Origin: a phage
Length of the DNA: 64,000 nt
Sequence record: PZ534534.1
Direction: 5' to 3' (one strand)
The notes under the pieces were generated by a model. It was given only the letters and a program-made list of their open reading frames with translations. It was not told the DNA's origin and searched no databases. The position numbers and the translations under genes are program-made. Shown here piece by piece: positions 11,792-42,926 of the stretch. Position 1 is the stretch's first letter, and every line of letters begins with the position of its first letter.

Positions 11792-11821
11792 GGGGAGGGG
11801 GTTCTCCCCTCCCCTTTTTAT
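11792..11821 (+). terminator. rho-independent terminator
   Basis: Perfect hairpin GGGGAGGGGgttcTCCCCTCCCC followed by TTTTTATTT. Confidence 0.75.
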
Positions 11822-11847
11822 TTATTAGGGTTTAACAGGAGTGTCCC

Positions 11848-13361: not shown

Positions 13362-13390
13362 TTGCTTTTGATGTATCTTTGTGGTAAAAT
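13362..13390 (+). promoter_or_regulatory. sigma70-like promoter (TTGCTT-17-TAAAAT, TGGTAAAATA family)
   Basis: -10 TAAAAT preceded by TGG; 17-nt spacer. Confidence 0.45.
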
Positions 13391-13408
13391 ACATTAGTGA
13401 GGGATATA

Positions 13409-13867
13409 ATGCTAAAGGTTAAATGTCAAACAAGGTTCAACCTAAAGCGTTTAGATCGCTTCTACAAAGAACTTGTGAGACTTGAAAGTAAAACAATAAC
13501 CTACGGCTTTTATGACGAACCTCACCCGTCAGGCTTAAATATGGCAACATTGGCAGCCATTCACAACTTCGGTTGGAACGGGCTGCCTGTTCGCAATTTC
13601 ATGGAGACAGCCTTTGCATTTCATAGTACTCAACTACAGACCTTGACAGAAAAATTGTTGAGAGCTATGGCTAGAGGATCAAGTGCAGAGGCTATTCTTA
13701 AGCAGATGGGGGACACAGGGGCCAAAGCTATCCAGTTTGTTATTGAGGCTGGGCAGTTTAGTAATCCTACTGTTAGTGAGCAGTGGGCACAAGAAAAGGG
13801 CTTCAACGAGGCTATGCGGCATTACGATGTGCTGCTTGAATCTGCAACCTTTAAAATCGGACAGTAA
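13409..13867 (+). CDS. hypothetical structural protein
   Basis: ATG at 13409 with GAGGG RBS. Confidence 0.4.
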   Translation: MLKVKCQTRFNLKRLDRFYKELVRLESKTITYGFYDEPHPSGLNMATLAAIHNFGWNGLPVRNFMETAFAFHSTQLQTLTEKLLRAMARGSSAEAILKQMGDTGAKAIQFVIEAGQFSNPTVSEQWAQEKGFNEAMRHYDVLLESATFKIGQ

Positions 13868-13882
13868 AAATAAGGGGGTTGA

Positions 13883-14308
13883 GTGGCAGCAGGTTATAAG
13901 CTGATAGGAAAGAACAGACTAATACCTCGTAAAACATTCAAAGGTCGCCACAGAGTGTATAACAAAACAGTTGGTGGCCCTTTTGCCAACGAGGGGTTAG
14001 AACTTGAGTATGAAGAGTTTGATGTCTTAGAGTGTGTTGTGCAGCCGTTGACAGGAAGGGCAGCTAAAGATTACTCCTCTCAAATAAACCCTGAAGGTGA
14101 CAGACAGTACGAGGCTTTTACAGTTTACTCTTCAACCAAGTTGTATAGTCCGGATGAAGGGACATATGCAATGGCTGATCAAATTCAACTTCCTGACATT
14201 CGTGGTGACTTGAAATGGTTTACCGTTTTAAAATGCGATGCATATGTTACCTCTGGTGGTGGGAGATATAGATTTTTTGTAGTAGAAGAGCCTGAAGGAG
14301 AAAACTGA
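13883..14308 (+). CDS. hypothetical neck/tail completion protein
   Basis: 141 aa; GTG start with AAGGGGG RBS. Confidence 0.4.
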   Translation: MAAGYKLIGKNRLIPRKTFKGRHRVYNKTVGGPFANEGLELEYEEFDVLECVVQPLTGRAAKDYSSQINPEGDRQYEAFTVYSSTKLYSPDEGTYAMADQIQLPDIRGDLKWFTVLKCDAYVTSGGGRYRFFVVEEPEGEN

Positions 14309-14859
14309 TGGAAGCTTTCGAAAAAGTTTTTTCTGATCTTGAAACAACCATTGCTAAGCTCGTCAAGGTTGCCACAGGAAGAACTGTAGTTCTGGCAGAA
14401 AGCTCTACCATACCGAAGCCGGAAGGTGAGTTTGTACTTTTACAAACCTTGGCGATCAATCCCACAACTTGGGAAGATAATGAGTTTCAAGATGCAGAGG
14501 GTAATGCTTACGTCACCCACAGTTACACTGTTACTTATCTGTTAACAGCTTATCGTGGCAGAGCATATGCTGCACTTAGCAGAGTATTGCAAGCAATAAA
14601 CCTTCCAATGTTTTATGACAAGTATTTCCCTCTGGGATCGTGCTTTGCCTACTCTAACAATTCAACAATCTCACCTCAAAGAGTGCCGTTGAATAAGCAG
14701 ACGTATGAAAATAGAGCCACTGTGATGCTGACATTTAACGTAAGGTTTGTTGAAACAGACATTGGGGCTTTTGAGGATCTTCAGGGAATTAAGGCTGAAA
14801 TAACCACACACTTCCCTTCACCCAATTCTGGTAAAGCGGTTACAGACAGTGGTCAGTAA
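14308..14859 (+). CDS. hypothetical tail-associated protein
   Basis: 183 aa, start overlaps the previous stop. Confidence 0.4.
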   Translation: MEAFEKVFSDLETTIAKLVKVATGRTVVLAESSTIPKPEGEFVLLQTLAINPTTWEDNEFQDAEGNAYVTHSYTVTYLLTAYRGRAYAALSRVLQAINLPMFYDKYFPLGSCFAYSNNSTISPQRVPLNKQTYENRATVMLTFNVRFVETDIGAFEDLQGIKAEITTHFPSPNSGKAVTDSGQ

Positions 14860-14931
14860 TCGTTATAATTGTGTAGTGTAATGATTACACTGCGTGTTTG
14901 ATATCCGTGCACAGATATTAAGAGGAAACAA

Positions 14932-16308
14932 ATGCCATATTTAGATAAAGTGGTAGATGTTACAGTTAACCTCGGAACCCAGCCTATTGACACTGTAGGT
15001 TTCGAAACTCCGCTGTTCATCGCTATCCACAACAACTTTACTGAGCGAGCTCGTGTATATGCTGAGCTGGATCAGATGGTGGAAGACGGTTTCGCACAAG
15101 GCTCTGCAGCTTATGAGTTTGCAGCAAAAGCTTTCGGCGGTGTATTCCCTCCGCAGTATGTTATGATCGGCAGACAGGCAAAAGAAAAAACCACTGTAGA
15201 TTTTAAAGGTATTGCTGCCGCAGCTGATACCGATGTCGTAATGACTATTGCAAAAGGTGGCTACAATACTTCTCTGATAGTGCCTATCTCTGGTGGAACA
15301 GGTGCAACTCAGATTGCAGAGTCCATGAAGACTAAAATCGAAGCAGATGATAACTTGGACGATATCACTGTAGCGGCTGAAGACGGTGTTCTCACCATCA
15401 CGGGTGACTGTACTGTTGGTTATCATACTGGTAACTATACAATCAAAAATATCGCCAATGCTGAAAAACCTTCTACAGTAGTTGATAAGATCAATGCTGA
15501 GCGTGACAATTGGTACTTCCTGTGCCATGAAGACCACACCGACATTGAAGCATGTGCGAAGTGGGCTCAGGCTAACTACAAGCTGCATGTCTACTCTACT
15601 GCAGAAGATGTGACTGGCAAAGATAATAACATCGCCACCAAACTGATGGCTGCACAATATGACAGTGTTGGCATGTACGATCCTCGTGCAGATAAGGACT
15701 TCCCGGAGGGTGGTATCATAGGTGCTATGGCATCCAACGATCCGTCTTACGGCGACAGCTTGCACTTAAAACAGATGCCAGGTGTGATTGCACCGTCTCT
15801 GACTTTAACTCAGCGTATGGCTATTTGGGAAAACCACGTTAACTTCTACAGAATGATTAACGGTGTTGGCGCTTTCTGGGAAGGTAAGTGTGCTTCAGGT
15901 CAGTATGCAGACGCTATTCGTTTTGCACACTGGATCAAGTTCAGATCTGAAGAATCTATGTTTGGGTACATGCATCGTCGCTCCAACATGGGTTTAAGCA
16001 TGAAGATGTCTGATGATGATCTTCCGGTTATCAAGTCTGTCCTGATGAACAACCCAATCAACACTGGCATTAAGAATGGTGCGATCCTGACAGGTTTCGA
16101 CGAAGACAATAATGTATTCTACGACCCGATCATCACAGTTCCTAAACGTGCAGAAATCCCAACCAATCAGTTGGCTGCTCGTGTTCTGGAAGGTGTGAAA
16201 GTAGAACTGGTGTATAACAACGCCCTGCACTTCGTCCGTATCCGGATCAACGTCCTTCTGGACAAAGTTGGTTCTAAATCCACCAATGCTGTTGCAATGA
16301 CTGAATAA
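14932..16308 (+). CDS. major tail protein, tail sheath-like (putative)
   Basis: 458 aa, strong RBS, codon-biased; positioned before the tube-like gene, chaperones and tape measure. Confidence 0.5.
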   Translation: MPYLDKVVDVTVNLGTQPIDTVGFETPLFIAIHNNFTERARVYAELDQMVEDGFAQGSAAYEFAAKAFGGVFPPQYVMIGRQAKEKTTVDFKGIAAAADTDVVMTIAKGGYNTSLIVPISGGTGATQIAESMKTKIEADDNLDDITVAAEDGVLTITGDCTVGYHTGNYTIKNIANAEKPSTVVDKINAERDNWYFLCHEDHTDIEACAKWAQANYKLHVYSTAEDVTGKDNNIATKLMAAQYDSVGMYDPRADKDFPEGGIIGAMASNDPSYGDSLHLKQMPGVIAPSLTLTQRMAIWENHVNFYRMINGVGAFWEGKCASGQYADAIRFAHWIKFRSEESMFGYMHRRSNMGLSMKMSDDDLPVIKSVLMNNPINTGIKNGAILTGFDEDNNVFYDPIITVPKRAEIPTNQLAARVLEGVKVELVYNNALHFVRIRINVLLDKVGSKSTNAVAMTE

Positions 16309-16318
16309 GGAAGCCTAG

Positions 16319-16792
16319 ATGGAAACTCAAATTTTAACTCCTTATGCGTATGACCCTAAAAAGGTCAAACTGTATCTGATGCAGCAGCGTGTCACTGGCT
16401 TCGCTGCTGACACCAAGATTGTTGTTTCAAGAAACGAAGACAACATTTATCCTCACGTCGGTGTGGATGGTGAAATGTCTGCGGCTCTGTCCCGTAACCA
16501 ATCCGGTGTTATGACTGTATCTTTGCAGAACACTTCTGTATGGAACGCTTACCTTTCTGACTGGCAGAAACAGGCATCTATTACTGGCCTGGTATTCTTC
16601 CCGGTTCTGCTGGAAGGTAGCCAGGGCCCTGGTATTTCCACAATCGGTTGGATCCAGAAACAGCCTGACCTGACTTACGGAACCGAAGTAGGTCAACTGG
16701 ACTGGGATATCGGTATTCTGGATGCATGGCTCAACCGTGATAACATCACTGGTGCTCTTACTGGCCTCGCAGGTCTTGCAGGTATTATTTAA
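16319..16792 (+). CDS. tail tube-like protein (putative)
   Basis: 157 aa directly after the sheath-like gene and before chaperones; followed by a terminator. Confidence 0.45.
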   Translation: METQILTPYAYDPKKVKLYLMQQRVTGFAADTKIVVSRNEDNIYPHVGVDGEMSAALSRNQSGVMTVSLQNTSVWNAYLSDWQKQASITGLVFFPVLLEGSQGPGISTIGWIQKQPDLTYGTEVGQLDWDIGILDAWLNRDNITGALTGLAGLAGII

Positions 16793-16810
16793 GGGCACAC
16801 TTTAGCATAA

Positions 16811-16837
16811 GCCTCACCTTCGGGTGGGGCTTTTTGC
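16811..16837 (+). terminator. rho-independent terminator
   Basis: Hairpin CCTCACCttcgGGTGGGG followed by CTTTTTGCTTTT. Confidence 0.65.
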
Positions 16838-16882
16838 TTTTATGGTTTTGACACACGTTCTTGAATTGCTTGAAAGGTTAAA

Positions 16883-16911
16883 TTGACAATGCACCATAAT
16901 CATGGTAAAAT
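16883..16911 (+). promoter_or_regulatory. sigma70-like promoter (TTGACA-17-TAAAAT, TGGTAAAATA family)
   Basis: Consensus -35 and -10 with 17-nt spacer upstream of the chaperone gene. Confidence 0.6.
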
Positions 16912-16954
16912 ACACAAATATGGTGCACAACATGACTAATAAGGATGCTATAAA

Positions 16955-17428
16955 ATGGCTATAAACTTTAGACCTACAACAGAGATTGATTTAGCAGGGC
17001 ACAACTTTGTGATCACCCACTGGGGGCCGATGAAAGCAATGAAAAACATGCCTAAAATCGGTAAGATTGTGGCTGTCCCGCTAGGTGCTATCGGTGGATC
17101 TATTCTCTCAGGTGGTCAGAATATGGCAGAGGTCCTTCCTACAGCCCTGGCTTACCTGTTCCAAGAACTTGATGATAACTCCATTGAAGAGCTATTTAAA
17201 ATCTTGTTCGAAGATATTACCGTAGATGGTGTGGATAGGCTTAACCCGGATGTTGTGTTTGCAGGGCATCTGCTGGAGATGATTAAGCTGGCAGGTAAGG
17301 TTCTGGAGGTTAACTACGGCTGTTTTTTCACACAAGACGGTTTAGGAAGCCTTCTGGAGATGTTACAGCAGATGGGTATGATTCAGCAGGTGAACAATCT
17401 GGATCAGACTCCGGAAGAGCAGGAATAA
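16955..17428 (+). CDS. tail assembly chaperone (lambda G-like)
   Basis: 157-aa acidic protein directly upstream of the tape measure gene; contains a slippery heptamer near its 3' end. Confidence 0.6.
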   Translation: MAINFRPTTEIDLAGHNFVITHWGPMKAMKNMPKIGKIVAVPLGAIGGSILSGGQNMAEVLPTALAYLFQELDDNSIEELFKILFEDITVDGVDRLNPDVVFAGHLLEMIKLAGKVLEVNYGCFFTQDGLGSLLEMLQQMGMIQQVNNLDQTPEEQE

Positions 17429-17688
17429 GCAAGGTTGTTGTGAGGGCCAGTGAGTGGGCAGCCAAGAACAGTTCACTAAACTGGTTCGACTTTCTTTGGT
17501 GCAGGGTGCTCAAGAATTTCAAAGGGGAAAATTTTGAATCGCTAAATCTTGCAGATATGGCGTATTTCCTGAAGCTATGTGAGTATCTTGATATCGAAGA
17601 ATTCCTAGATACCGTCCAAAACAGGGAAATGGAGCGGGAGCAGAAGGCTGCCGCAGCTGCTGCGAAAGCTAAGCGCAGGAGAGGATAA
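16955..17688 (+). CDS. tail assembly chaperone frameshift fusion product (lambda GT-like)
   Basis: Downstream ORF (17440..17688) has no independent ATG or RBS, lies in the -1 frame and overlaps the upstream ORF, as in the lambda G/GT paradigm. Confidence 0.5.
17323..17329 (+). promoter_or_regulatory. programmed -1 ribosomal frameshift slippery site (T TTT TTC)
   Basis: X XXY YYZ heptamer in the zero frame of the chaperone gene; the -1 frame is open from 17314 to 17688. Confidence 0.55.
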
Positions 17689-17692
17689 TCTA

Positions 17693-17728
17693 AGGGCCGG
17701 ATTCCTTTTCTGGGATCTGGCCCTTTTT
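17693..17728 (+). terminator. rho-independent terminator
   Basis: Hairpin GGGCCGGAT...ATCTGGCCC followed by TTTTTATT. Confidence 0.6.
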
Positions 17729-17742
17729 ATTATGAGGAAACC

Positions 17743-20079: not shown

Positions 20080-20087
20080 TAAACTGT

Positions 20088-20112
20088 GCAGGGGGGGCTC
20101 CGGCCCCCTTTA
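20088..20112 (+). terminator. rho-independent terminator
   Basis: Hairpin GGGGGgctccggCCCCC followed by TTTATTTTAT. Confidence 0.6.
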
Positions 20113-20123
20113 TTTTATCGGTG

Positions 20124-20152
20124 TTGTAAAAACGGCTATTTTATGATACAAT
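20124..20152 (+). promoter_or_regulatory. sigma70-like promoter (TTGTAA-17-TACAAT)
   Basis: Hexamers with 17-nt spacer upstream of the first post-tape-measure gene. Confidence 0.45.
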
Positions 20153-20185
20153 ATCTAGATGGTATCGGAGTGTCCTGGAGAGGTT

Positions 20186-21070: not shown

Positions 21071-21082
21071 GGGGAGCGTATA

Positions 21083-23144: not shown

Positions 23145-23156
23145 TAGAGGGCTTTC

Positions 23157-23873: not shown

Positions 23874-23882
23874 GGAGAAATC

Positions 23883-24551: not shown

Positions 24552-24552
24552 G

Positions 24553-27150: not shown

Positions 27151-27154
27151 CATA

Positions 27155-27175
27155 GGGGGCTGTTTGCCCCCTTTC
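27155..27175 (+). terminator. rho-independent terminator
   Basis: Hairpin GGGGGCtgtttGCCCCC followed by TTT. Confidence 0.55.
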
Positions 27176-27185
27176 AGGAGAAAGA

Positions 27186-30100: not shown

Positions 30101-30986
30101 CTACAAAGGGGATAGGGAAGGTTTTTATCATCAGGAGGCCAATGCTCAAGCCACACCTGATAGAAACTACCCATGCTCCCGGGCAGGTACGCTTATCGTG
30201 TACAGGAACTACGCCAATGTTCCAGAGAGTTGCGTACAGGAGTATATATCATATCTTGGGGAAAAATTCCTGCGTTATGGAACAACAATAGGTAGTGTTT
30301 TCACATGGGGACCTTGGCAGCAGCTTGGTGGTAAGGGAATTACTCTTAAAACCGCAGGTTCCAATCTTGACCCAGAGTTCATGATACATACAGGTGGTGG
30401 GACCGATGTTACCAACACTTCCAACATGCCTTCTAATACAGGCAGAATGTACTACTGGGGTAATGGCGCAGACAGGAAGAACGTGCTTGAGTTTCAGATA
30501 AACGACAACGCTACATCTGCCAGTTGGGTATGGCATTGTGGTGCTAAGACAGATGAGGCCAAGTCAAGGTACTTTGCTGTCAACGGCGTAGTAGAGTGCA
30601 CCGCTGTCAGCCAGAGCTCTGACCGTGACCTGAAGGATAACATAGAGGTTATTCCTAACGCGTTGGAAGCTATCCGTAAGATGAAAGGCTATACCTACAC
30701 TCTAAAAGAGAATGGTATGCCTCACGCGGGGGTAATTGCTCAAGAGGTTATGGAAGCATTGCCTGAAGCGGTTGGTTCTTTCGTGAAAAGGAAAGAGGTT
30801 CCTGGTCCTACTCAAGATGGTATTCCTCTGATGACCGAGGAAAGATTCTATAATGTTGACTATGCGGCTGTAACAGGATTGCTTGTTCAGGTTTGCAGAG
30901 AACAAGATGATAAAATAACCGCCCTTGAGGAGCAGGTTAAAAAATTGACAGAGGTTGTTACTGGGTTGCAAGAGAAACTGAAGTAA
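27186..30986 (+). CDS. long tail fibre with C-terminal intramolecular chaperone (peptidase S74) domain
   Basis: C-terminal block SDRDLKDNIEV...GYTYTLK...GVIAQEV is the hallmark of the self-cleaving chaperone domain of endosialidases and T5 L-shaped fibres; N-terminal anchor domain shared with the 23883 protein. Confidence 0.8.
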   Translation: MADIKVVRIESLPATTAVTEDDYLVVQQPDLTRRVKIGDVVHVDGTVSHVISFKEGGKLNGPMDFAYFEEEDLYLRWKGEFPHTVPALSSPYADGGITDAAWMVYTDPSLREELESTIGASMIMTAEGQSVQDVMDVTVQTANDAKALAQRVDFGTVHTVGDVIHLDNFVGPAVIEEGRTTNYPSVAAGEKFLNGVVSRRDTTTVDGIFRGATTGAMYTIAVTNGVATTKRIALRDEFKRLETNNPTRTVIRAGDDLNTAGYLQLDATGRWGMWNQQTASWQPLAIEQGGTGARDAAGVRINIGAFYKQRAALDANFNINNLTGNQDGIYYQPMTANATEANGYPAGSGAGHLIVWQNNANGGTGCRQEYYPFSNVDVWYLRTYQANTNQWTAWQPMVRPRNDDTFRSHIGLGKNNSPAFGHLYLAQYSGDVKSASGILHGDKYNTDGVLEHGYRIYSEVRNDNKAWLTIHLHKGAKGSETHRYLGLREDGVLDCPKYMQVGDLTGQLTNWGLGEWIRSSGAERGFWGSKKAAKMVVWDGGMDESGNGTLEWGVYNNRKAKWEPLSHAAGGTGATTLADAQNLFKVPIAAGVKDFLTLPRTAGMEDGKYYPIIVRTDPYYAPATGTDITIVTRSSSGSDPMNCATLQCHYRTGGWTDRGDSFYGVVNFYQNEKALLGMVAPTRGKQEYVAFYVEARAFPVSVYASRNVVEVFTREQDYQVGAVTDNQDGVKFVAPLQSADLNLAVLGDNNTNTRPIVDFKGTSGFYTGGGTQWHYIGTAERYAVMSKMNMPKVELWADGIDYLCYGSPRKALFSNAGFQCASDGTEDLTNGTFTSKCGNGAGLKGQAEFRSTPEAGQVIVRDVVGTAHRFYNFNKDGTFSAPGGFVCHTGGDWNNQFGSNNPSKIMAGNVNGPEGSMVVGGLSVAFSGNYAFQMAGRLDQLYTRSIEGGNHRAWNKVIQHRGQGLGINDLNDYKGDREGFYHQEANAQATPDRNYPCSRAGTLIVYRNYANVPESCVQEYISYLGEKFLRYGTTIGSVFTWGPWQQLGGKGITLKTAGSNLDPEFMIHTGGGTDVTNTSNMPSNTGRMYYWGNGADRKNVLEFQINDNATSASWVWHCGAKTDEAKSRYFAVNGVVECTAVSQSSDRDLKDNIEVIPNALEAIRKMKGYTYTLKENGMPHAGVIAQEVMEALPEAVGSFVKRKEVPGPTQDGIPLMTEERFYNVDYAAVTGLLVQVCREQDDKITALEEQVKKLTEVVTGLQEKLK

Positions 30987-30993
30987 CTGTTTT

Positions 30994-31019
30994 GCCCTCG
31001 CTTCGGCGGGGGCTTTTTG
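30994..31019 (+). terminator. rho-independent terminator (CGCTTCGGCG family)
   Basis: Hairpin CCCTCGCttcgGCGGGGG with UUCG-type loop followed by CTTTTTGTTTG. Confidence 0.65.
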
Positions 31020-31025
31020 TTTGTA

Positions 31026-31054
31026 TTGCGTATTAACTTAAAATCTGGTAAAAT
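31026..31054 (+). promoter_or_regulatory. sigma70-like promoter (TTGCGT-17-TAAAAT, TGGTAAAATA family)
   Basis: -10 TAAAAT preceded by TGG; -35 weaker. Confidence 0.4.
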
Positions 31055-31085
31055 AGCTATCATGATTGTTTAACCCGGAGGCACA

Positions 31086-31676
31086 ATGTTTTTATGGGAA
31101 AGGCCTAGATATCTTCCAGATATTAGATTGGAGCTGCTGGCAGATATTGTTACGTTTAAAAGTCCATTTACAGGTAAAACGCAAAAAGTAACCTATGCCA
31201 CACCTAACTGGAAAGGCACTTTGACGGTCTCCAATATCAGCGAGTCACAGTTGCTAGAGCTTAAGAGCTTTGTTGATCAGGTGTATAAAGATGGAAACAT
31301 CTTTCTTATTAAAACTTACGGTCACTCAGTAACAACTAATGAGCCAATCGCCCTTGGGCCTACTGGTAACGACGATTTTTTGAAGACGGTCGGATGGGAG
31401 CCAAACAGAGACATAGCTAGAGCTGGGGATAAAATATCTGTCAATGATGAATTGAAAGTGGTAACAGCTCCAGTGCGTAGTGATGGTGTTGGGTCTGCTG
31501 TTATAGGCATATCTCCAAGACTTAGAAAGCCTATTGCCGCAGGGGACACCATGAAGATAATAACTCAATCTCCGAAGGGTAGGTTTCATATCAGAGATAT
31601 TTATAAAATTAAGCAAAAAGTCGATGCTATGCAAAAAGGTGATAATATAGTTATCAACTTCTTTGAGGATTTCTAA
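31086..31676 (+). CDS. minor tail protein (tail-tip complex, first gene of J-type module)
   Basis: 196 aa, first of three small genes preceding the J-like gene. Confidence 0.45.
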   Translation: MFLWERPRYLPDIRLELLADIVTFKSPFTGKTQKVTYATPNWKGTLTVSNISESQLLELKSFVDQVYKDGNIFLIKTYGHSVTTNEPIALGPTGNDDFLKTVGWEPNRDIARAGDKISVNDELKVVTAPVRSDGVGSAVIGISPRLRKPIAAGDTMKIITQSPKGRFHIRDIYKIKQKVDAMQKGDNIVINFFEDF

Positions 31677-31677
31677 G

Positions 31678-32229
31678 ATGATCAGAGCGCCATTAGATAA
31701 TTTATTTCTTGAAAAGCTGGAGCTTGATGGTGTTGAGATCTTAATTGCTGCAAAGCTGGAGCTACCGACAGGAACTGTCAGGGTGTGCTCAGGCACTGGT
31801 GTTGTAGTAATTGAGGGGCAACATTTTATAGGGATAGGTGGATCAGCAACGTTAACTGCTGTGTCTGAGAAAGATGCCACCAACTTCGGATCTGTGGTAG
31901 CGACATTGAACGGGTTTGATCCTAAGTATGTGGGTGATCTGCTGAAGACGGAGTATTCTGGTTGTCGTGCCACGTTGTACATTACCGCTATGGAGAATGG
32001 TCTGCCTGTTACAACTAATGGCTTGTTTGACGGCCTTATAACAGATATGGCTATTCAGACAGGCGAGAATAGTGCTTTGTCCATATCCATCTCCTCCATC
32101 TTCAACAGCTGGTTAAGAGGTTTTCCTTATCGGTACACGGAGGAAAGCCACAGCTCAAGAAACGATAACGACAGATTTTTTAAATATGTGGATCAGGTGG
32201 CGAGCCGCCCGATCATTTGGGAGGTTTAA
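31678..32229 (+). CDS. minor tail protein (lambda L-like position)
   Basis: ATG at 31678 with GAGGAT RBS (ORF-track TTG start at 31663). Confidence 0.45.
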   Translation: MIRAPLDNLFLEKLELDGVEILIAAKLELPTGTVRVCSGTGVVVIEGQHFIGIGGSATLTAVSEKDATNFGSVVATLNGFDPKYVGDLLKTEYSGCRATLYITAMENGLPVTTNGLFDGLITDMAIQTGENSALSISISSIFNSWLRGFPYRYTEESHSSRNDNDRFFKYVDQVASRPIIWEV

Positions 32230-32654
32230 TGAGCACACATCCTCGTTTAGTGGATTGGCAAGAAAGATTGTGGAAAGTGTTTGACGAAGAGGCCACCATA
32301 CCTTTTGAATGGGGATTCCACGATTGTTGCACCTTTGCGGCTAAGTGTGTTGATGCCCAATACGGAACAGATTTTCTTTCTAACTTTGAAGGAACGTATA
32401 AAACAGAGTTGGAAAGCAAAAGATGGTGCATGCTTCGTTTCAAAACCACACACCTGCCTACTATTTTTGATCTCTTTATGACTCGGCTGGATACTCCTAA
32501 ACAGGCTCAGCGTGGAGATATTGTCATTTTCGAAGGTCTGAACGGGCTCACCGCTGGTGTGTTCTGGAACAACCAGATTTGGGCTAAAGGTGATAAAGGG
32601 GTCTTTATGTTCGACATGAAAGATTCTATCGTTGTTGATGTCTGGAGGTATTAA
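32229..32654 (+). CDS. minor tail protein, putative NlpC/P60-like (lambda K-like position)
   Basis: ATG at 32229 with GGGAGG RBS; conserved Cys/His (FHDCCTFAAKC) consistent with a papain-like peptidase domain. Confidence 0.45.
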   Translation: MSTHPRLVDWQERLWKVFDEEATIPFEWGFHDCCTFAAKCVDAQYGTDFLSNFEGTYKTELESKRWCMLRFKTTHLPTIFDLFMTRLDTPKQAQRGDIVIFEGLNGLTAGVFWNNQIWAKGDKGVFMFDMKDSIVVDVWRY

Positions 32655-35600
32655 TGCCAATTGCAATGATTGATAACATCGTTGCTTCTGCAAGATCTTC
32701 AAGTTATGACTGGAACGCATCCAAGGCAGCTCTGGCTGACAGCCTGAACACTGTTACCACCAGAACTCTGGATAAGATTTTCGAGGGAAACAAATCTTAC
32801 AGAAGTCAGCAAGATAGACAAAAGCTTCTCAGATCTTCTGCTGCACCTTGCTCTGTAGTGTATGGGAAGACACGTACATCTGGATTGCTTGCGTTTTTGG
32901 AGCAGGACAGGGACAGAACCCTTCATTGTGCTATTGTTCTTGCCAATCACCCTCTGGAAGGTATAGAAGATATACTTATCGACGGTAATCCTATTTCTTC
33001 GTATGGGGATTTGGTATCGTGGGAGCTACATAACGATAGAAAAACCTCTGATCCTTTCATGGGCACACACTGCCCATCGTGGTCACCGGACATGATAGGT
33101 AGAGGGATCAGTTGGCTACGGGTCAGCTTTAGGTTTGACCCTAACAAGTTTCCTTTTGGGTTGCCAAACGTCACACTCGTCAAGGTTGGTAAAAAATGCT
33201 ATGATCCTCGCACTAGTAAAGAGGTGTATACCAATAACGCTGCCTTGGTGATTCTGGACTATTTAAGAACGTACCTTAAATGTCCTGACGAAACCATCAA
33301 CTGGGAGTCCTTCAAGGAGGCTGCCAACATATGCGACGAGGCTGTAAGAAACGCAGACGGAACCAGCGAGCGTCGTTACACAATTAATGGCGAGTTCGAT
33401 ATGGATGAGGCCCCAGCAAGTATTATGGCAGAAATGCTGAAAGCTTGTGGCGCAGATCTCAGCTATGTAGCTGGTAAGTATGGTTTGCTGGTTGGTGCAT
33501 ACTATGGCCCGGCAACAATGACACTGAGTGAGGATTGTGTCTGTGGTGAGGTCAAGATCTACCCGGAAGCCTCATTTGACAAAAGATCCAACACAATAAC
33601 CGGCAGATTCACTAGTCCGACCAAAGGGTATTCTGAAACAGATTTTCCATCAGTGTTTGTCCCAGAGTGGATAGAGAAGGATGGAGAAAGAAAGATAATC
33701 GATATAGACTATCGCTTTGTTACCAGCCCTTATCAAGCTCAGCGTGTTTCTGCAATCTTCTTAAGACGCGCGAGAGCTGGCAGGATTATTGAAGTCACCT
33801 GCAATATGCGAGGTTTTAAATTTAAACCTGGTCGTTACGTTACAATGAACCTTCCAAGTATAGGTATAGTGGGCCAAGAAATGAGGGTTCTTGAATGGGA
33901 GTTTACCAAAAAGGGTGGTGTCAAGGTAAAACTTCGTCAAGATGCTAAAGAGTGGAATGATGCCACAGGGCAACTTCCGGATTCTGGCAATGTAGATATT
34001 CCGATATCTCCATCTGGTGTAGCTCAACCGCAAAACTTCAGATACTCCGTTCTCCAAGCTGGGGAAGTAACTCACGGTGTTTTGGCTTGGGACAACGTTG
34101 GGACTTACGCTCAAAATATTGTGCAGGTAAGAAAGAACGGAGAGATTGTTTGGACAGCACAGACAGTTGAGCAGTTTGTCAGAGTAGAAGGTTTGACCAA
34201 AGGGTCATACACAGCAACCGTGGTTGCAACATCTTATAAAGGTGGTGTATCTCCAGAAGCGTATTGTGAGTTTAACATTCAGGCACCTGAAGCTCCGGTT
34301 TCTGTAGAGGTTAAGCAAGGATACTTTGCTATCACCTTGATTCCGCATAGTAGGGATTTAGCAAGTGTTAGCACCCAGTATGACTTTTGGACATCCGGTA
34401 TGACAAGGTTGCCAGACACCAGTGATGCAACCGTTACTTCAAACGCCACCCGTATGGGTGTTGGTTCAACTTGGACATCTGAAGGTCTGCAGAACGATAA
34501 GGTTTATTATTGGTATATTCGAACCACAAACGCTTTTGGTAGTTCTCAGTTTGTAGAATGCGCTGCACGCTGCTACACCTCTATTGAGGATTTGATGCCT
34601 CAGATAGATGCTGAATTCAAAAAGACAGAAACTTATAAAGAGTTGATGAGCACTTTGGATTCCTCTATTGAAGAGGTTGAAAATCGTGTCACAGAACTTA
34701 ACAGGTACATGGATGGTAGGGTAGATGAAGCGTTCCAGCAACTTGGGGACAGAATAGGTGCGGTAGTTACAGAAACAACTCAGAAGTTTGAAGATGTCAA
34801 TGGTAACATTACAGCGCTGGATAGGAAACTTGTTGCTGCACAGAACAAATTCACCAACGATCTGAACACTGAAAGTGGCAGACTGGCATCTCTAATCGAG
34901 ACAACCAATAAAGCAACTACTGATCTTCTGAACAAAAAGACAGAGGCTTTAGATGAGAAATTGGTTGCCGCCAAAGGTGAGCTGGTAGAGCAGATAGGGG
35001 GAGTTGAGAGCGGGTATTTAGCCGGAGATAAAACTCTGGATGGTAAGATCAATACTCAGAGAACAGAACTTGACGCAAGCATCTTGAGCACTAACCAAGC
35101 CACTGTAGATCTTTTGAACAGGACATCTGAAACTCTGGATCAAAAGATTAGTCAGACAAACGCGACGGTATCTAAAAACTATACCACCCTTGACGGCAAG
35201 ATAACTACCGCAAAAACTGACCTCAACACCTTGATTGCCAATACCAACAAGGCCACCACTGACTTGTTGAATCAGAAAACATCTGCACTGTCAGAGCAAA
35301 TAACTTCTGCACGTGGGGAGATCTCTACCAACAAGCAAGCGATTGATGCTTTGGATGGAAAACTGACCTCCACAAAAACAGCGCTGGATGCTACAATTTC
35401 CGATACCAACAAAGCCACTGTGGACCTTATCAACGGCACAGCGTCAGCTATTCGTCAAGAACTTGCTGTCGCTAAGCAGGAGATCATCAATGATGTTGGG
35501 GATGTATCTGAGCTTAGGGCTGCAGTAGCTACAACATCTAAGGCTGTAACCGACTTAGAGGGTAAAGTAAATGCTCAATGGGGCACAAAAATACAGGTAG

Positions 35601-36493
35601 ACTCCGCAGGGAATAAATATGTTGCAGGTATCCAGTTGGGGATGGAAGGGTCTGGGGGCCAAGTTCAATCCTACTTCATGGTTAGTGCAAACAACTTTGC
35701 GGTATACAACCCCGGAAATGGAACAGCAACCCTTGCTTTCGCAATCAAGAACAACCAAGCGTTCTTGAAAGACGCTTTTATAGAGAATGGCACGATCTCT
35801 TCTGCCAAGATCGCACAAGAAATTTCGTCAAACAACTACGATGGCAACGGGTACCATAAATACGGTTGGTATATTAACAAGAACGGGCACGCCCAATTTA
35901 TGGATGTATGGGTGAAAGGCAACATCAACGCCAGTTCTGGTAACTTCACAGGGGCAGTTAACGCCACCAGTGGTACCTTCCGTGGGGATGTTTATGCCAA
36001 TAACGGTAGCTTTAGGGGCACCATAGATGCAACCGGAGGTACCTTCCGTGGGCGTGTAGAGGCTTCTGTTATTCGTGCTAACCAGTTCGAAGGTGCAATA
36101 GTTGCACACAAGACCTACGGTGACTGTCCTCCAGTATACAACTCTCAGCAGCAGGTTTGCCGTTGGAGATGGAGATACGTGGATAACGTTCAAGGACAAG
36201 GTAAGAACGTAACATTCTTCTTTAAGCTTAACGGAACTCTAGGAGGCTCCCAGTTGAATGTGTGGATAGCGGGGCACCAGTTGCTCGCTGGCAAGAAGTA
36301 TGGTAACGACAACGATGGTATGTGTGCAGTCGGGATAACAGGGCTGGGTGAACAGACCATAGACATTATTGTTGAAATTTACACACGCTGGTCCACCTCA
36401 GCTATAACAGGTGTTACAATATCCTGTCCTACTGTGATAGTAAGTCGTTCAAACTCTAGCTTCCAGGGACCTTGGAACGAGTCTCACGACTAA
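32654..36493 (+). CDS. host specificity / central tail fibre protein (lambda J-like)
   Basis: 1279 aa; blocks GYFAITLIPH, YYWYIRTTNAFGSSQFVE and WGTKIQVDSAGNKYVAGIQLGMEG...SANNFAVYNP match lambda J blocks recalled from memory; long heptad-like repeat region. Confidence 0.8.
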   Translation: MPIAMIDNIVASARSSSYDWNASKAALADSLNTVTTRTLDKIFEGNKSYRSQQDRQKLLRSSAAPCSVVYGKTRTSGLLAFLEQDRDRTLHCAIVLANHPLEGIEDILIDGNPISSYGDLVSWELHNDRKTSDPFMGTHCPSWSPDMIGRGISWLRVSFRFDPNKFPFGLPNVTLVKVGKKCYDPRTSKEVYTNNAALVILDYLRTYLKCPDETINWESFKEAANICDEAVRNADGTSERRYTINGEFDMDEAPASIMAEMLKACGADLSYVAGKYGLLVGAYYGPATMTLSEDCVCGEVKIYPEASFDKRSNTITGRFTSPTKGYSETDFPSVFVPEWIEKDGERKIIDIDYRFVTSPYQAQRVSAIFLRRARAGRIIEVTCNMRGFKFKPGRYVTMNLPSIGIVGQEMRVLEWEFTKKGGVKVKLRQDAKEWNDATGQLPDSGNVDIPISPSGVAQPQNFRYSVLQAGEVTHGVLAWDNVGTYAQNIVQVRKNGEIVWTAQTVEQFVRVEGLTKGSYTATVVATSYKGGVSPEAYCEFNIQAPEAPVSVEVKQGYFAITLIPHSRDLASVSTQYDFWTSGMTRLPDTSDATVTSNATRMGVGSTWTSEGLQNDKVYYWYIRTTNAFGSSQFVECAARCYTSIEDLMPQIDAEFKKTETYKELMSTLDSSIEEVENRVTELNRYMDGRVDEAFQQLGDRIGAVVTETTQKFEDVNGNITALDRKLVAAQNKFTNDLNTESGRLASLIETTNKATTDLLNKKTEALDEKLVAAKGELVEQIGGVESGYLAGDKTLDGKINTQRTELDASILSTNQATVDLLNRTSETLDQKISQTNATVSKNYTTLDGKITTAKTDLNTLIANTNKATTDLLNQKTSALSEQITSARGEISTNKQAIDALDGKLTSTKTALDATISDTNKATVDLINGTASAIRQELAVAKQEIINDVGDVSELRAAVATTSKAVTDLEGKVNAQWGTKIQVDSAGNKYVAGIQLGMEGSGGQVQSYFMVSANNFAVYNPGNGTATLAFAIKNNQAFLKDAFIENGTISSAKIAQEISSNNYDGNGYHKYGWYINKNGHAQFMDVWVKGNINASSGNFTGAVNATSGTFRGDVYANNGSFRGTIDATGGTFRGRVEASVIRANQFEGAIVAHKTYGDCPPVYNSQQQVCRWRWRYVDNVQGQGKNVTFFFKLNGTLGGSQLNVWIAGHQLLAGKKYGNDNDGMCAVGITGLGEQTIDIIVEIYTRWSTSAITGVTISCPTVIVSRSNSSFQGPWNESHD

Positions 36494-36502
36494 CCTTTAA
36501 AG

Positions 36503-36528
36503 CCCCGCTTCGGCGGGGTTTATTTTTA
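36503..36528 (+). terminator. rho-independent terminator (CGCTTCGGCG family)
   Basis: Perfect hairpin CCCCGCttcgGCGGGG followed by TTTATTTTTAT. Confidence 0.75.
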
Positions 36529-36536
36529 TGCTCAGA

Positions 36537-36565
36537 TTGACTATTGTTACAAAATTTGGTAAAAT
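36537..36565 (+). promoter_or_regulatory. sigma70-like promoter (TTGACT-17-TAAAAT, TGGTAAAATA family)
   Basis: Near-consensus hexamers, 17-nt spacer. Confidence 0.55.
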
Positions 36566-36598
36566 ACCTTGTAGAGATTTTCATACCGGAGGAGTGAC

Positions 36599-38089
36599 GT
36601 GGCTAAGTATGGATTGACAGAGGCTGGTTTCGTTATACCAACCCTAAATGACCTAATCGTTGAAACTAAGCAAAGCCTGATCCGTGCTTTTGGCGAAAAC
36701 TTCAACGTACAGAGTAACTCCGTTGCAGATAAGCTGACCACTATCTTCAACGAGCGAGAGTATCAACTTATTCTTATGGCAGCATCTGTATACGCATCAC
36801 AGACGCTGTATGGGGCAGAAGGTATTTACCTAGATGAGCTTCTTGGAAGACAAGGTATTTACCGAAGAGGCCGTTCTAAATCATCAGGTACCTGCCAGTT
36901 GACAATCAACACAACTGTGCCGTACAATATGATTTATGATTCCAAAACTTATACGCTGGACAGTGGCAACTTTGTTCTTAGCAACGATGTGCAAGTAGCA
37001 GGGAATCTTATTGCTCACAGAATAAATGCCCCAGACCTAAGGATTGGTAAATACAACTTTCAAATTACCAACCAGACAGATGGAAGTATCAAAACAAAAA
37101 GTCTGGTTTTAACAGATAAGTCTCTGGACTCTTCTGATCTGCCAAGCTTTTACGGAGAGATTAAGCAGTTCATTGTCGATAATACAACCCTGTTGAACGA
37201 CGATTTGATTCAGATAGATATGTTGACAGGAACGTTGTGGATAGGGTACAATTCGAATCTTGATCAAGTTGGACTTAATAGTAGAGTAGATTTCAGAGTA
37301 TCCCCGATTGTAGGGGAAAGAACTATCACACTGGATGTTATCGCTAACGAGGCGGGTGAGTTGTCAAGAGAGGCAGAAACCGTGACAACAATGTCACCTA
37401 CTCCCAGTGGATTTATCAAGCTTACCAACCGAGAAAGATTCAATGAGGGCAGGGATGTTGAGAAAGACTCAGAGTATCGCTTAAGAGCTTCCAGCACAAA
37501 ACAGTTAACATCTAAGGCTACCCGTCCTGCAATCCTTAGCGCTGTAAGCGAGGTGAAAGGTGTTGAGAAAGTGAGAGTGTTCTCCAATAACACCGATAAA
37601 ACTGATGCTAAAGGTATACCCCCTTACAAGTTCCAAGTGGTTGTGTTTGGTGGTGCAACGGAAGACATTTGCCAAGCACTTTACCAAACTATAGCCTGTA
37701 CGAACAGGACTTATGGTAATATTTTCTACGATGTCACTACATCTGACGGTCAAACTGAAAGAATTTATTACTCCAAGGCAAACACCTACCGCCTAGATGT
37801 AAGAATTACCTACTCCGGTGCTGCGCTTTCTACAACCGAAAAAGATGCCATTATAGAGGCTCTTTTGCAGGTTGTTAACGGACTGGATGTTGCAGATACG
37901 TTGTATAATATCCAATTGGTAGGTGCTGCATCTGCTGCTGTGTCAATAGGCAGATTTAATAGGCTGGTAATTCAAGTTAAATCCGTAGGAGCTTCTGATG
38001 AAGCTTACACTACAAACGATATTGTTGCGAACATGACCGAGGTGTTTGACCTCGACGAAAGTAATATAACTTTCCAACAAACTATTTAA
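36599..38089 (+). CDS. baseplate J-like protein (Mu gp47 / P2 gpJ family, putative)
   Basis: 496 aa; N-terminal block ...LYGAEGIYLDELLGRQGIYRRGRSKSSG... resembles the conserved baseplate-J signature; GTG start with GGAGGAG RBS. Confidence 0.6.
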   Translation: MAKYGLTEAGFVIPTLNDLIVETKQSLIRAFGENFNVQSNSVADKLTTIFNEREYQLILMAASVYASQTLYGAEGIYLDELLGRQGIYRRGRSKSSGTCQLTINTTVPYNMIYDSKTYTLDSGNFVLSNDVQVAGNLIAHRINAPDLRIGKYNFQITNQTDGSIKTKSLVLTDKSLDSSDLPSFYGEIKQFIVDNTTLLNDDLIQIDMLTGTLWIGYNSNLDQVGLNSRVDFRVSPIVGERTITLDVIANEAGELSREAETVTTMSPTPSGFIKLTNRERFNEGRDVEKDSEYRLRASSTKQLTSKATRPAILSAVSEVKGVEKVRVFSNNTDKTDAKGIPPYKFQVVVFGGATEDICQALYQTIACTNRTYGNIFYDVTTSDGQTERIYYSKANTYRLDVRITYSGAALSTTEKDAIIEALLQVVNGLDVADTLYNIQLVGAASAAVSIGRFNRLVIQVKSVGASDEAYTTNDIVANMTEVFDLDESNITFQQTI

Positions 38090-38100
38090 GGCGGCGAGAT

Positions 38101-40859: not shown

Positions 40860-40871
40860 TCAGGAGATAAA

Positions 40872-41912
40872 ATGTCAAAACCTAGTTTTCCATTAGAGAT
40901 TTGGGCAGAGGAGGATCAGGTTCTGCCTAACACCCACAGACAGAACAGGCTACGCCCGATTGATGATTTGTGGAGAAAAGGTTGGGATCTTGGTCAAAAG
41001 CCATCCTGTGAAGAACTTAACTATATTTTCAATATGCTCGGAACTTGGGCAAAATACATTGCTGACGAGCAGATCCCCGCTCAAGAAGGCCGTTATCTGG
41101 TACGTGATAATAACTTGAGCGATCTTTTGAACATCCCTGTTGCCCGTAGAAACCTTGGGATTATCACTAAGGAAGAGGCAGACGCCAGGTATGTAAAAGT
41201 TACAGGTGATACAATGACAGGCCCCTTGGGGTTGCAACGTATCAACTTTAAAGCTGCCGAGACAGATAAGGCTTGGATAGAGACAACTATTGGCCCAGAT
41301 AAGACAACTCTCGACTTTGGGTTAAGTGATAATACCGGGTCGTTTGATGATGGTGGTACATCTACAGTAGATGCGTTTCGTTGGAGATTCCAGCCAACTC
41401 AGCCGGATATTAATCCAGAGTTCACTTTGATGTACCTTAACGCGATCACGGCTAATCGTGCGCTGTTGAAAGTGGTAGGCAATGTTGAAGTTGTCGATAA
41501 CATGAGGTGCAATAACCTTACTATCAGCAATACAGCAACATTCACCAACTGTAATGTGGCTAGTCAGTTGACGGCTGGGTCAGTATATGTTAATGGTGGT
41601 GCAAGTTGTGACAGTATGGTTGTAAGAAGCCAGCACTGTGTTGTCGGTAACAGAAATGTGGTGCGCTCCGTGAATGGAGTGACGGCTAACGGTAACGGTG
41701 ATGTAACGATCACTATCCCGCAGACAGGTGTGCAAGACATCAGAATCGGTGCAAGACTTGTGGACGGCGTTTCTGAATCTCCAATCCGCAACGGCTACGT
41801 TGTCACAGGCTGGCATTTCGGTGACAAAAAAGAGATGCGTGGTTCAACCTACTGGGCAGGACCTTTACAAAAACTTGTAAATGGTCAATGGATCACTGTT
41901 AATTATGCATAG
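40872..41912 (+). CDS. tail fibre protein (paralogue A)
   Basis: 346 aa; paralogous to 42927..43970 (same N-terminal PLEIWA.EDQVL and C-terminal QKLVNGQWIT..YA ends); followed by a Tfa chaperone gene. Confidence 0.6.
   Translation: MSKPSFPLEIWAEEDQVLPNTHRQNRLRPIDDLWRKGWDLGQKPSCEELNYIFNMLGTWAKYIADEQIPAQEGRYLVRDNNLSDLLNIPVARRNLGIITKEEADARYVKVTGDTMTGPLGLQRINFKAAETDKAWIETTIGPDKTTLDFGLSDNTGSFDDGGTSTVDAFRWRFQPTQPDINPEFTLMYLNAITANRALLKVVGNVEVVDNMRCNNLTISNTATFTNCNVASQLTAGSVYVNGGASCDSMVVRSQHCVVGNRNVVRSVNGVTANGNGDVTITIPQTGVQDIRIGARLVDGVSESPIRNGYVVTGWHFGDKKEMRGSTYWAGPLQKLVNGQWITVNYA
41868..41897 (+). repeat. 30-bp direct repeat copy 1 (3' end of fibre paralogue A)
   Basis: CAAAAACTTGTAAATGGTCAATGGATCACT identical to 43926..43955. 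Confidence 0.9.
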
Positions 41913-41926
41913 ATCGGAGGACTAGC

Positions 41927-42511
41927 ATGAAAATACTTCAAGAGTTTAAACTTTACCAACCGGGATCTGGCGAATACTACTCCAACAAGGAAACCAAGGA
42001 GCTGACCCCTCAAGAGGTCGAGGATTACACCGCATACACTGGGTATTTTTTACGTAATGATGATGGTGATTGGTATGTGCAGTCACGAACATTACGACAA
42101 GAAAATCCAGGGTGTATCTTCCTACTTGTTGACGAGAAGGGAATTCTTAAGACATCTACAGAAGAACCTGATGCCTTATGGCCTGCTCCAGGTCTTCGTG
42201 TGGTTATCGCCAAAAAAGAAGAGGTACCAGAAAACATTATGCTTCACCACGACGCTTTGCGTTTAGTTGGTGATGAATTTGTCACAGACAATGAATTCTT
42301 TGTTCAACAGGCAGAGGGTGTCATAGAGACAGAACTTGCTTGGGCTACTGCTAGAATTGGTGCCTATCAAGACATGATTGACCTTGAATATGATCTTACT
42401 GATGACCAGAAACGTAACATCAGAGATTTGAAAATGTACAGGGTAAAACTTCTTGAAATAGATACATCTAAAGCCCCTGACATTTTCTTCCCGGAGCGAC
42501 CTACCCTCTAA
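41927..42511 (+). CDS. tail fibre assembly protein (Tfa chaperone)
   Basis: C-terminal block DQKRNIRDLKMYRVKLLEIDTSKAPDIFFPERP matches the conserved Tfa C-terminal signature (W..YR..L..vD.s.AP.I.WP..P). Confidence 0.7.
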   Translation: MKILQEFKLYQPGSGEYYSNKETKELTPQEVEDYTAYTGYFLRNDDGDWYVQSRTLRQENPGCIFLLVDEKGILKTSTEEPDALWPAPGLRVVIAKKEEVPENIMLHHDALRLVGDEFVTDNEFFVQQAEGVIETELAWATARIGAYQDMIDLEYDLTDDQKRNIRDLKMYRVKLLEIDTSKAPDIFFPERPTL

Positions 42512-42522
42512 GAGGAGGTGTT

Positions 42523-42837
42523 GTGGAGTTGGATTTGGCGGCATTGTACGGTATCTGCATGGGTACCGTTGTCCCGATCTGTGTATGGGCTTTCAACCAG
42601 TGGCACACCAAATGGAAAGGCATTTCCAAGAGGTTGGATGAGCTGGAGAAAGACCTCATCTTAGTGAAAAACAGTATGGTTACAAAAGATAGACTTGATT
42701 CCGTTATCGAGACTCGGTTAAGCAAGCTAGAGGCCGATATTAACGACCTTAAGCAGGATGTCAGGACAGATGTCTCCGGCATCCGAGCTGATGTACAAAA
42801 GATTTTGCACATGCTCGTAGAGCATAGTAAAAGGTAA
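42523..42837 (+). CDS. small membrane protein (single TM helix plus coiled coil) embedded in the fibre locus
   Basis: GTG start with AAGAGGAGG RBS; TM segment LAALYGICMGTVVPICVWAF; own terminator downstream. Confidence 0.5.
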   Translation: MELDLAALYGICMGTVVPICVWAFNQWHTKWKGISKRLDELEKDLILVKNSMVTKDRLDSVIETRLSKLEADINDLKQDVRTDVSGIRADVQKILHMLVEHSKR

Positions 42838-42846
42838 ACAAAGGTC

Positions 42847-42880
42847 AGAACGGAAAGGACTCCGTTCTTGCATTTTGTTC
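42847..42880 (+). terminator. rho-independent terminator
   Basis: Hairpin AGAACGGAaaggacTCCGTTCT followed by TGCATTTTGTTC. Confidence 0.55.
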
Positions 42881-42896
42881 TCTAAAGTGTTAAAAT
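42868..42896 (+). promoter_or_regulatory. sigma70-like promoter (TTGCAT-17-TAAAAT) for the second fibre cassette
   Basis: Hexamers with 17-nt spacer; overlaps the terminator tail. Confidence 0.45.
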
Positions 42897-42926
42897 AGTC
42901 CTAAGGAATTTTCTCAGGAGAACGTG

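Follow-up and report, generated by a model that had tools for sequence, protein, structure and literature searches.

A family of promoter-like sites and a set of hairpin terminators were found in a 64,000-nt stretch of phage DNA (sequence record PZ534534.1, hereafter the window), and they are probably the late-class promoters of a ~45-kb structural-gene unit and its leaky intrinsic terminators, the promoters being recognized most likely by the host RNA polymerase holoenzyme through the extended -10 contacts of sigma-70. The window belongs to an rV5-like Vequintavirus, a myovirus of E. coli, and showed 95-98% identity to E. coli phage rV5, of which it represents the reverse complement of ~1.2 to 65.2 kb. 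When positions 13000-17500 and 30000-37000 were compared by megablast, more than 120 phage records were matched, the type phage rV5 (DQ832317) among them, with identities of 93-98%. The genes are arranged in the following blocks:

1-52186, + strand: rightward unit with rV5 genes 81 to 27 (tRNAs, terminase, head, tail, baseplate and fibre genes)
7178-51781, + strand: structural unit, 44604 nt (44.6 kb)
52504-58442, - strand: leftward block, beyond a bidirectional terminator at ~51700
58519-63142, + strand: second rightward block, a separate transcription unit that holds the hairpin at 62605

Results

Extended -10 promoters of the structural unit

The family pattern was TTGnnn-N14-TGnTA(A/C)AAT, usually with A as the next base, which is a sigma-70 layout in which the -10 is extended (TGn) and the spacer is 17 bp long. 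An initial annotation of the same DNA had described "at least five" such promoters, at 13362, 16883, 31026, 36537 and 42868. All five read as described, and the full pattern was found at nine positions in the window, all on the + strand, the extra sites being 1360, 7181, 8854 and 20124. The sites are listed below, where the rV5 tables are those of Kropinski et al. (2013):

1360..1388, + strand: P074, TTGACA-N14-TGATAAAAT, before ORF74 and the tRNA cluster, outside the range of the initial annotation; rV5 Table S4A
7181..7209, + strand: P064, TTGCCA-N14-TGGTACAAT(A), terminase/portal gap, upstream of terminator t064; rV5 Table S4C
8854..8882, + strand: P063, TTGCAA-N14-TGATAAAAT(A), gap between portal gene and next head gene, kept in four other lineages; absent from the rV5 tables
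13362..13391, + strand: P056, TTGCTT-N14-TGGTAAAATA, kept in four other lineages; rV5 Table S4C
16883..16912, + strand: P051, TTGACA-N14-TGGTAAAATA, before the tail chaperone genes; annotated in DQ832317 as "Sigma70-type promoter; P51"
20124..20153, + strand: P048, TTGTAA-N14-TGATACAATA, kept in four other lineages; PhagePromoter prediction at the same place in phage Gotham
31026..31055, + strand: P040, TTGCGT-N14-TGGTAAAATA, putative promoter of the ORF40-37 module; rV5 Table S4C
36537..36566, + strand: P036, TTGACT-N14-TGGTAAAATA, before the baseplate wedge gene, kept in four other lineages; rV5 Tables S4A and S4C
42868..42897, + strand: P030, TTGCAT-N14-TGTTAAAATA; rV5 Table S4C

TTG at the -35, the exact 17-bp spacer and TG one base before the -10 hexamer were each present in 9/9 sites. 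The -35 hexamers matched TTGACA at 3-6 of six positions, and the -10 hexamer was TAAAAT in seven sites and TACAAT in two, each a 5/6 match to TATAAT. The TGG that had been reported immediately upstream of the -10 is the TGn of an extended -10; the fifth of the originally described sites (TGT) and the extra sites (TGA) carried this element as well. A listing of every + strand gap placed all nine sites on the coding strand, in intergenic gaps, with a start codon 12-45 nt downstream.

The occurrence of the sites was then compared with expectation. In the structural unit, TTGNNN-N14-TGNTA[AC]AAT was observed 8 times against 0.09 expected and was not observed on the minus strand, and 200 dinucleotide shuffles of this unit gave a maximum of one full-pattern match. 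In the window as a whole, TTG-N20-TAAAAT gave 7 matches against 1.06 expected, all on the + strand, and TGGTAAAATA gave 4 against 0.19. Only 1218 of the 44604 nt of the structural unit are intergenic, and in an unbiased k-mer count over 15 intergenic gaps TAAAATA ranked first, being present in 6 of them. Differently, scans with generic sigma-70 and terminator consensus sequences recovered the strongest sites but stayed near the shuffle background (46 vs 31 and 38 vs 35 expected), so that such scans cannot discriminate alone. The near-background generic sigma-70 matches would suit an origin of the sites by chance or by the base composition of AT-rich intergenic DNA; the excess of the full pattern, its absence from the opposite strand, the intergenic position of every site and the orthologous conservation in five lineages described below refuted this origin, whose probability is practically negligible.

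The class was also restricted to structural-gene DNA. In the 50-kb early/middle segment of rV5 (72203-122202) the full pattern was not found, whereas TTGACA-N15-19-TAnnnT was observed 14 + 14 times against ~2 expected. A scan of rV5 88000-137947 revealed one further full-pattern site, TTGTAA-N14-TGCTAAAATA, upstream of ORF215. This site (DQ832317 123662-123690, - strand) lies outside the structural unit, before ORF215/214 and an endonuclease gene, which by their promoter may also be expressed late. The shorter word TGnTAnAAT was counted in 1-52186 as well: 23 sense copies were found against ~6 expected and 0 antisense copies against ~4.2 expected, and an antisense count of zero came up in no more than 4-5 of 300 Markov simulations. 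Internal sense copies were found, for example, at 7748, 30908 and 48000. This strand skew suggests additional internal sense promoters together with avoidance of antisense ones.

Conservation of the promoter class in Vequintavirinae

The terminator-promoter junctions were nearly invariant within the genus Vequintavirus, which is uninformative because the genomes are 95-98% identical. The structural regions of more divergent phages were compared, namely Seunavirus NINP13076, Mydovirus KB57, Certrevirus CR3 and phage A73 (whose record gives no genus), with proteins 31-85% identical to those of the window. Four orthologous positions carried the motif, two of them following the portal and tape-measure genes and two preceding the neck and baseplate wedge genes. 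Among the resulting 20 orthologous sites (four positions in five lineages), TG was retained in 20/20, each of the TAAAAT bases in 19-20/20 and the following A in 18/20, and at the -35 TT was retained in 20/20 and G in 15/20, while the spacers and flanks had diverged. Over the 29 sites examined, the third base of the -10 was A or C and never the consensus T, and A followed the hexamer in 26. In the more distant Aeromonas phage PhAER-3 and in a Phapecoctavirus the motif showed neither enrichment nor strand bias, so it was not demonstrated that the class predates Vequintavirinae.

Probable recognition by the host polymerase

Based on this layout, the host-type promoter architecture proposed in the initial annotation appears sound: TTG, spacer, TGn and TAAAAT are combined before structural-gene blocks and are conserved across genera. 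The holoenzyme most likely binds directly, with sigma region 4 on the TTG, region 3 on the TG and region 2 on the -10 hexamer, and the strict retention of TTG at a fixed spacing argues for such recognition. Initiation is predicted ~7 nt past the -10, near 13397, 16918, 31061, 36572 and 42903, and the leaders would be ~12-37 nt long and carry the ribosome-binding site. The use of the sites by unmodified E-sigma70, like these start positions, is what we infer from the DNA sequence.

Several points weigh against that use. A sigma-70 promoter so near the consensus would be expected to work as soon as infection begins, which is hard to square with "late" genes. Neither the invariable non-T third base of the -10 nor the A after the hexamer is obviously required by sigma-70. 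The generic sigma-70 scan rose barely above background, so consensus resemblance alone proves little. Moreover, no transcript ends or in vitro transcription were found in the searchable literature for Vequintavirinae, rV5-like phages or PVP-SE1.

The odd timing and the non-consensus -10 bases keep a second explanation alive, in which TGnTAAAATA marks a separate late-promoter class that needs a phage factor (a late sigma-like protein, a co-activator or a remodeller of sigma-70), with temporal re-targeting as in T4. We regard this as unlikely. It would agree with the limitation of the class to structural-gene DNA, with the dominance of the TTGACA class in early/middle DNA, and with the preservation across five lineages of a non-T third base and a trailing A that are dispensable for sigma-70 binding. 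A function is assigned to few of the early proteins, and the idea itself was raised by the authors of the rV5 genome, who noted a resemblance to T4 late promoters (Kropinski et al., 2013). The same authors found no homologues of gp45, gp33 or gp55 in rV5, and neither these homologues nor a sigma factor or a phage RNA polymerase were annotated in the inspected part of the RefSeq rV5 record, no remote-homology search having been made. A Pfam scan of the early proteins in the window gave no sigma or anti-sigma domains. The T4 late consensus TATAAATA was not enriched in the window (3 matches vs 2.4 expected, all antisense and none at the promoter sites) and was rejected as the motif. A TTG exactly 17 bp upstream of the -10 in 9/9 window sites and a TT in 20/20 orthologous sites are what sigma region 4 targets. 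A more specific form, in which TGnTAAAATA is the element of a late-transcription factor conserved in Vequintavirinae that would assist or re-target host RNA polymerase, be unrelated to T4 gp55/gp33 and retain the -35 TTG contact, seems quite unlikely.

One early protein bears on these possibilities. The gp11 homologue (57399-58442, - strand) matched the PHROG groups "decoy of host sigma70" (3.7e-15) and "Srd anti-sigma factor" (1.9e-10), which favours a phage factor, and to judge from these matches it could take part in the early-to-late switch. Its best PHROG match was labelled HNH endonuclease, and it had no Pfam match. No other early protein in the window gave a PHROG match of the Srd kind.

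Terminators and obligatory read-through

The form of an intrinsic terminator, a GC-rich hairpin followed by a T tract on the transcribed strand after a gene, was found at 12 sites, with folded segments of -12.8 to -26.1 kcal/mol. About 11 of these hairpin-plus-T-tract terminators belong to the structural unit, mostly with stems other than the CGCTTCGGCG core:

7227..7255, + strand: t064, GCCCTC-tgac-GAGGGC with T-rich tail, -14.0 kcal/mol; rV5 t064ABC
11792..11824, + strand: t060, after the major head protein gene, no promoter next, -21.5 kcal/mol
16809..16841, + strand: t052, after the tail tube gene, CTCACC-ttcg-GGTGGG, -17.2 kcal/mol
17692..17735, + strand: t050, 14-bp stem in the chaperone/tape-measure gap, no promoter next, -26.1 kcal/mol
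20090..20119, + strand: t049, after the tape-measure gene, -17.4 kcal/mol
27154..27175, + strand: hairpin GGGGGC-tgttt-GCCCCC with weak T tract, ORF42/ORF41 fibre gene gap, -15.1 kcal/mol
30994..31023, + strand: t041, GCCCTCGC-ttcg-GCGGGGGC with TTTTTGTTTG, -16.9 kcal/mol; rV5 t041
36500..36531, + strand: t037, AAGCCCCGC-ttcg-GCGGGGTTT with ATTTTTAT, -16.5 kcal/mol; annotated as terminator in HdK5 and Gotham
42847..42880, + strand: t031, GAACGGA-aaggac-TCCGTTC, T-rich tail overlapping the -35 of P030, -12.8 kcal/mol
46013..46044, + strand: t028, before the 1875-aa ORF27, no promoter next, -14.9 kcal/mol
51696..51725, both strands: t027/t026, bidirectional, closing the structural unit, -16.6 kcal/mol; in the rV5 paper
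62605..62632, + strand: t003, CCCCCGC-ttcg-GCGGGG with ATTTTCTATTT, upstream of a cell-wall hydrolase gene; rV5 t003

A terminator lies 20-35 nt ahead of the start of ORF59-57 (from 11848), of the tape-measure gene (17743) and of ORF27 (46054). There is no room for a promoter after t060, t050 and t028, so transcripts that reach these genes must read through, and the terminators must be leaky. The picture of separately terminated cassettes given in the initial annotation was thus not borne out. Since three gene blocks lack a promoter of their own, termination is incomplete, and the grid of promoters and terminators would set the relative dosage of structural proteins. In such a dosage device, the GC-rich hairpin and T tract would stop only a fraction of the polymerases, and repeated re-initiation combined with partial termination would give more transcript for genes that precede a terminator (capsid, sheath/tube, chaperone) than for genes that follow one (tape measure, ORF27). 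This dosage scheme, like the terminator efficiencies behind it, is predicted from sequence and is probable.

Obligatory read-through at three or more hairpins, together with the interrupted T tracts of t064, t003 and the 27154 hairpin, could also be taken to mean that the hairpins mainly protect mRNA 3' ends or act as processing signals and are not transcription terminators. This is very unlikely, because most of them have the full canonical form, a GC stem directly followed by 5-8 T in 8-10 nt, and because a T-rich tail follows the 16-mer CCCCGCTTCGGCGGGG in 98 of 125 occurrences in unrelated viral contigs. In addition, mRNA protection and termination are not mutually exclusive.

The three CGCTTCGGCG hairpins were present where the initial annotation had placed them, in canonical intrinsic-terminator form. 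The core occurred at 30999, 36506 and 62609 (3 vs 0.01 expected), with a cUUCGg loop, a T-rich tract after it and -13.9 to -16.9 kcal/mol for folded segments of 35-41 nt. Two conclusions that might be drawn from them did not hold. The core was found in only two terminators of the structural unit, the third copy (62605) lying in the separate rightward unit 58519-63142 and not within the late region. The shared hairpin was also no mark of a family, since the 16-mer CCCCGCTTCGGCGGGG was found in at least 120 IMG/VR viral contigs, none with megablast similarity to the window, so that sharing CGCTTCGGCG is no evidence of relatedness. The three hairpins as one related family were rejected; by its sequence, the CGCTTCGGCG core is a cUUCGg tetraloop hairpin of very high stability, and its recurrence is convergent. 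Another recurrent cUUCGg hairpin is t052 (GCCTCACCTTCGGGTGGGGCTTTTTGC), which we take to be a close likeness of the phage T7 early terminator TE (GGCTCACCTTCGGGTGGGCCTTTCTGCG). An Rfam scan of the whole window gave only tRNAs above threshold and no match at the hairpins.

Further observations were made on individual gaps. P064 precedes t064 (7181-7255), whose hairpin begins ~18 nt past the -10, and predicted P064 transcripts would reach t064 after ~30-40 nt, ahead of the portal gene. Such an arrangement is reminiscent of terminators placed close to a promoter, which have to be passed by read-through or antitermination. In the tube/chaperone gap, where the window phage has t052 and P051, the other lineages have a conserved hairpin with compensatory changes (GCCACAtggaTGTGGC, GCCTCAaggaTGAGGC; coordinates in the fetched regions L003 21895-21925, L004 21980-22010, L005 17068-17095 and L006 17365-17392). 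Just upstream of the tail sheath gene, an inverted repeat with a 12-bp stem and no proper T tract (GTGTAGTGTAAtgaTTACACTGCGTG, 14870-14896) may be an element of RNA processing or stability.

Published predictions for rV5

The promoters and terminators are already known as predictions for the type phage. Additional file 4 of Kropinski et al. (2013, Virol J 10:76) gives putative rV5 late promoters, the MEME motif TggTAaAAtA and rho-independent terminators. Table S4C lists P056, P051, P040, P036 and P030, which are the five sites of the initial annotation, as well as P064, P055 and P048, and Table S4D lists t041 (= 30994) and t003 (= 62605). In the record of phage Gotham, PhagePromoter and ARNold predictions are found at the same places. 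What was found here thus repeats a published prediction, as a confirmation and not a discovery, and the additions made here are modest: the cross-genus conservation, a corrected site list and the read-through requirement.

With regard to the site list, 8854 (P063) and t037 are absent from the published lists; the position of P063 carries a PhagePromoter prediction in Gotham. The published motif of P048 was aligned on the real -35, and the cross-genus alignment gave TGATACAAT at 20144-20152 as the true -10. The published P055 is probably a false positive, to judge from the window, which reads TAGTAGAAGA there. Outside the genus Vequintavirus, a Certrevirus study reported only the early TTGAC class, and no report of the late motif in other Vequintavirinae genera was found in the openly searchable literature.

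Junctions and mosaicism of the fibre region

The initial annotation had linked the promoter-terminator cassettes to a mosaic origin of the receptor-binding modules, which was partly supported, by one module and one fibre swap. The module is as follows:

31086-36493, + strand: ORF40-37 module, ending in a lambda-J-like tip protein (Phage_Tail_Tip and Ig_J domains)

Among the Vequintavirinae lineages sampled, it was specific to the genus Vequintavirus, with no counterpart in the four others, and it is bracketed by two terminator-promoter-ribosome-binding-site junctions, t041-P040 and t037-P036, whose local alignment score was 32, compared with 17 for the next best pair and a median of 12. These two junctions are clearly paralogous and form the only duplicated pair. 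Other junction pairs were no more alike than their shared motifs require. ORF40-37 looks like an insertion that came along with a duplicate of the ancestral junction, the one that precedes the wedge gene in all lineages.

Breakpoints were located by local BLAST against seven Vequintavirus genomes, and ~10 similarity breakpoints were found. In Gotham, APECc02 and nomine, a stretch with a different C-terminus of the ORF41 fibre plus an extra small gene ends at 30989, where homology resumes 3 nt past the stop codon of the fibre gene, with the t041 stem 5 nt further on. The remaining breakpoints were intragenic, at 28876, 30173/30217, 30480, 34574-35614, 34642-35438, 46304-47002 and 47354-50301.

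The duplicated junctions around a J-like module missing from other lineages, together with the swap that ends at the edge of t041, would be expected if the terminator-promoter junctions acted mainly as short homologies for the exchange of receptor-binding modules, in the manner of PeSLs, and this would explain the mosaic fibre region. Mydovirus KB57, which has its own TGnTAAAAT site at each of several depolymerase/fibre genes, points the same way. Even so, such a role is doubtful. Only 30989, probably a single event, lay at a junction among the ~10 breakpoints in the seven genomes, the others being inside fibre genes, and apart from the single duplicated pair the junctions were similar only as their motifs require. 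Regulatory junctions as the main recombination boundaries were thus mostly unsupported.

Two further fibre proteins in the window, ORF33 (40872-41912) and ORF30 (42927-43970), are paralogous, and both matched one gene in other lineages, over the full length in Seunavirus and over the N-terminal part only in CR3, A73 and two more distant phages. Judged by these alignments, this indicates a fibre-gene duplication in Vequintavirus.

Other features of the window

The gene of the terminase large subunit (3768-7177) is present in three exons, and the rV5 record annotates a three-piece join. The interruptions are group I intron-like RNAs, with RF00028 matches at 4184-5026 (48.5 bits; gathering score 50) and 6083-6321 (35.7 bits), and they contain an Endonuclease_7 ORF (4412-5002) and an HNH ORF (5514-6209). 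Among database records, 18 "Campylobacter phage" entries (GenBank MG0656xx, host C. jejuni) were 97-98% identical to the rV5-like window phage, and their host assignment looks doubtful.

Discussion

The main value of this work is annotation, namely a cleaner and slightly larger list of structural-gene promoters and terminators for rV5-like phages, which are widely used as candidates for therapy and biocontrol. The motif has been retained in at least five Vequintavirinae lineages, and its conserved non-consensus bases offer a concrete handle on how late genes are timed in a lytic phage whose promoters are all sigma-70-like. From the read-through that three terminators require, it can be predicted how the stoichiometry of the proteins is set. 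For phage engineering, the sites would provide compact and probably strong promoter parts, and swapped receptor-binding modules, for example, might be expressed from the native P040/t037 junctions.

Compared with the E. coli sigma-70 extended -10 promoter (TGnTATAAT), in which a weak -35 is offset by the TG, the base pair step contacted by sigma region 3, the window sites share the position of TG, a 5/6 match to TATAAT, the 17-bp spacer and a partial -35. They differ in that the hexamer is TAAAAT or TACAAT and never TATAAT, that A is the next base in 26/29, that the -35 TTG is kept, and that they form a class devoted to structural genes in a lytic phage.

The late promoters of T4, which depend on gp55, gp33 and gp45 and have no -35 element, likewise place an A/T-rich element of 8-10 bp centred at -10 before structural genes. 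The window sites differ from them in sequence and have a -35 TTG at fixed spacing. A further lead, and a lead only, comes from the Thermus phage P23-45, whose extended -10 middle/late promoters are used after phage proteins block the recognition of the -35. There too a temporal class is marked by an extended -10, which shows a possible route to late preference; the P23-45 promoters have no -35, whereas the window sites keep the TTG, and no homologous inhibitor was identified in the window phage.

The junctions around ORF40-37 resemble the PeSL cassettes of T4-like phages (Arbiol et al., 2010, PMC2839356; Comeau et al., 2014, PMC4122927), in which a short terminator-plus-promoter unit is likewise repeated on either side of a swappable module; in the Vequintavirus genomes compared, one swap boundary lies at the edge of such a unit. 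PeSLs contain early promoters and are present in many copies in hyperplastic regions, whereas the window has one pair with late-class promoters, and the resemblance is limited because most breakpoints are intragenic. The closest counterpart is the set of putative late promoters and terminators of rV5 (Kropinski et al., 2013), which is the same feature in a genome 95-98% identical.

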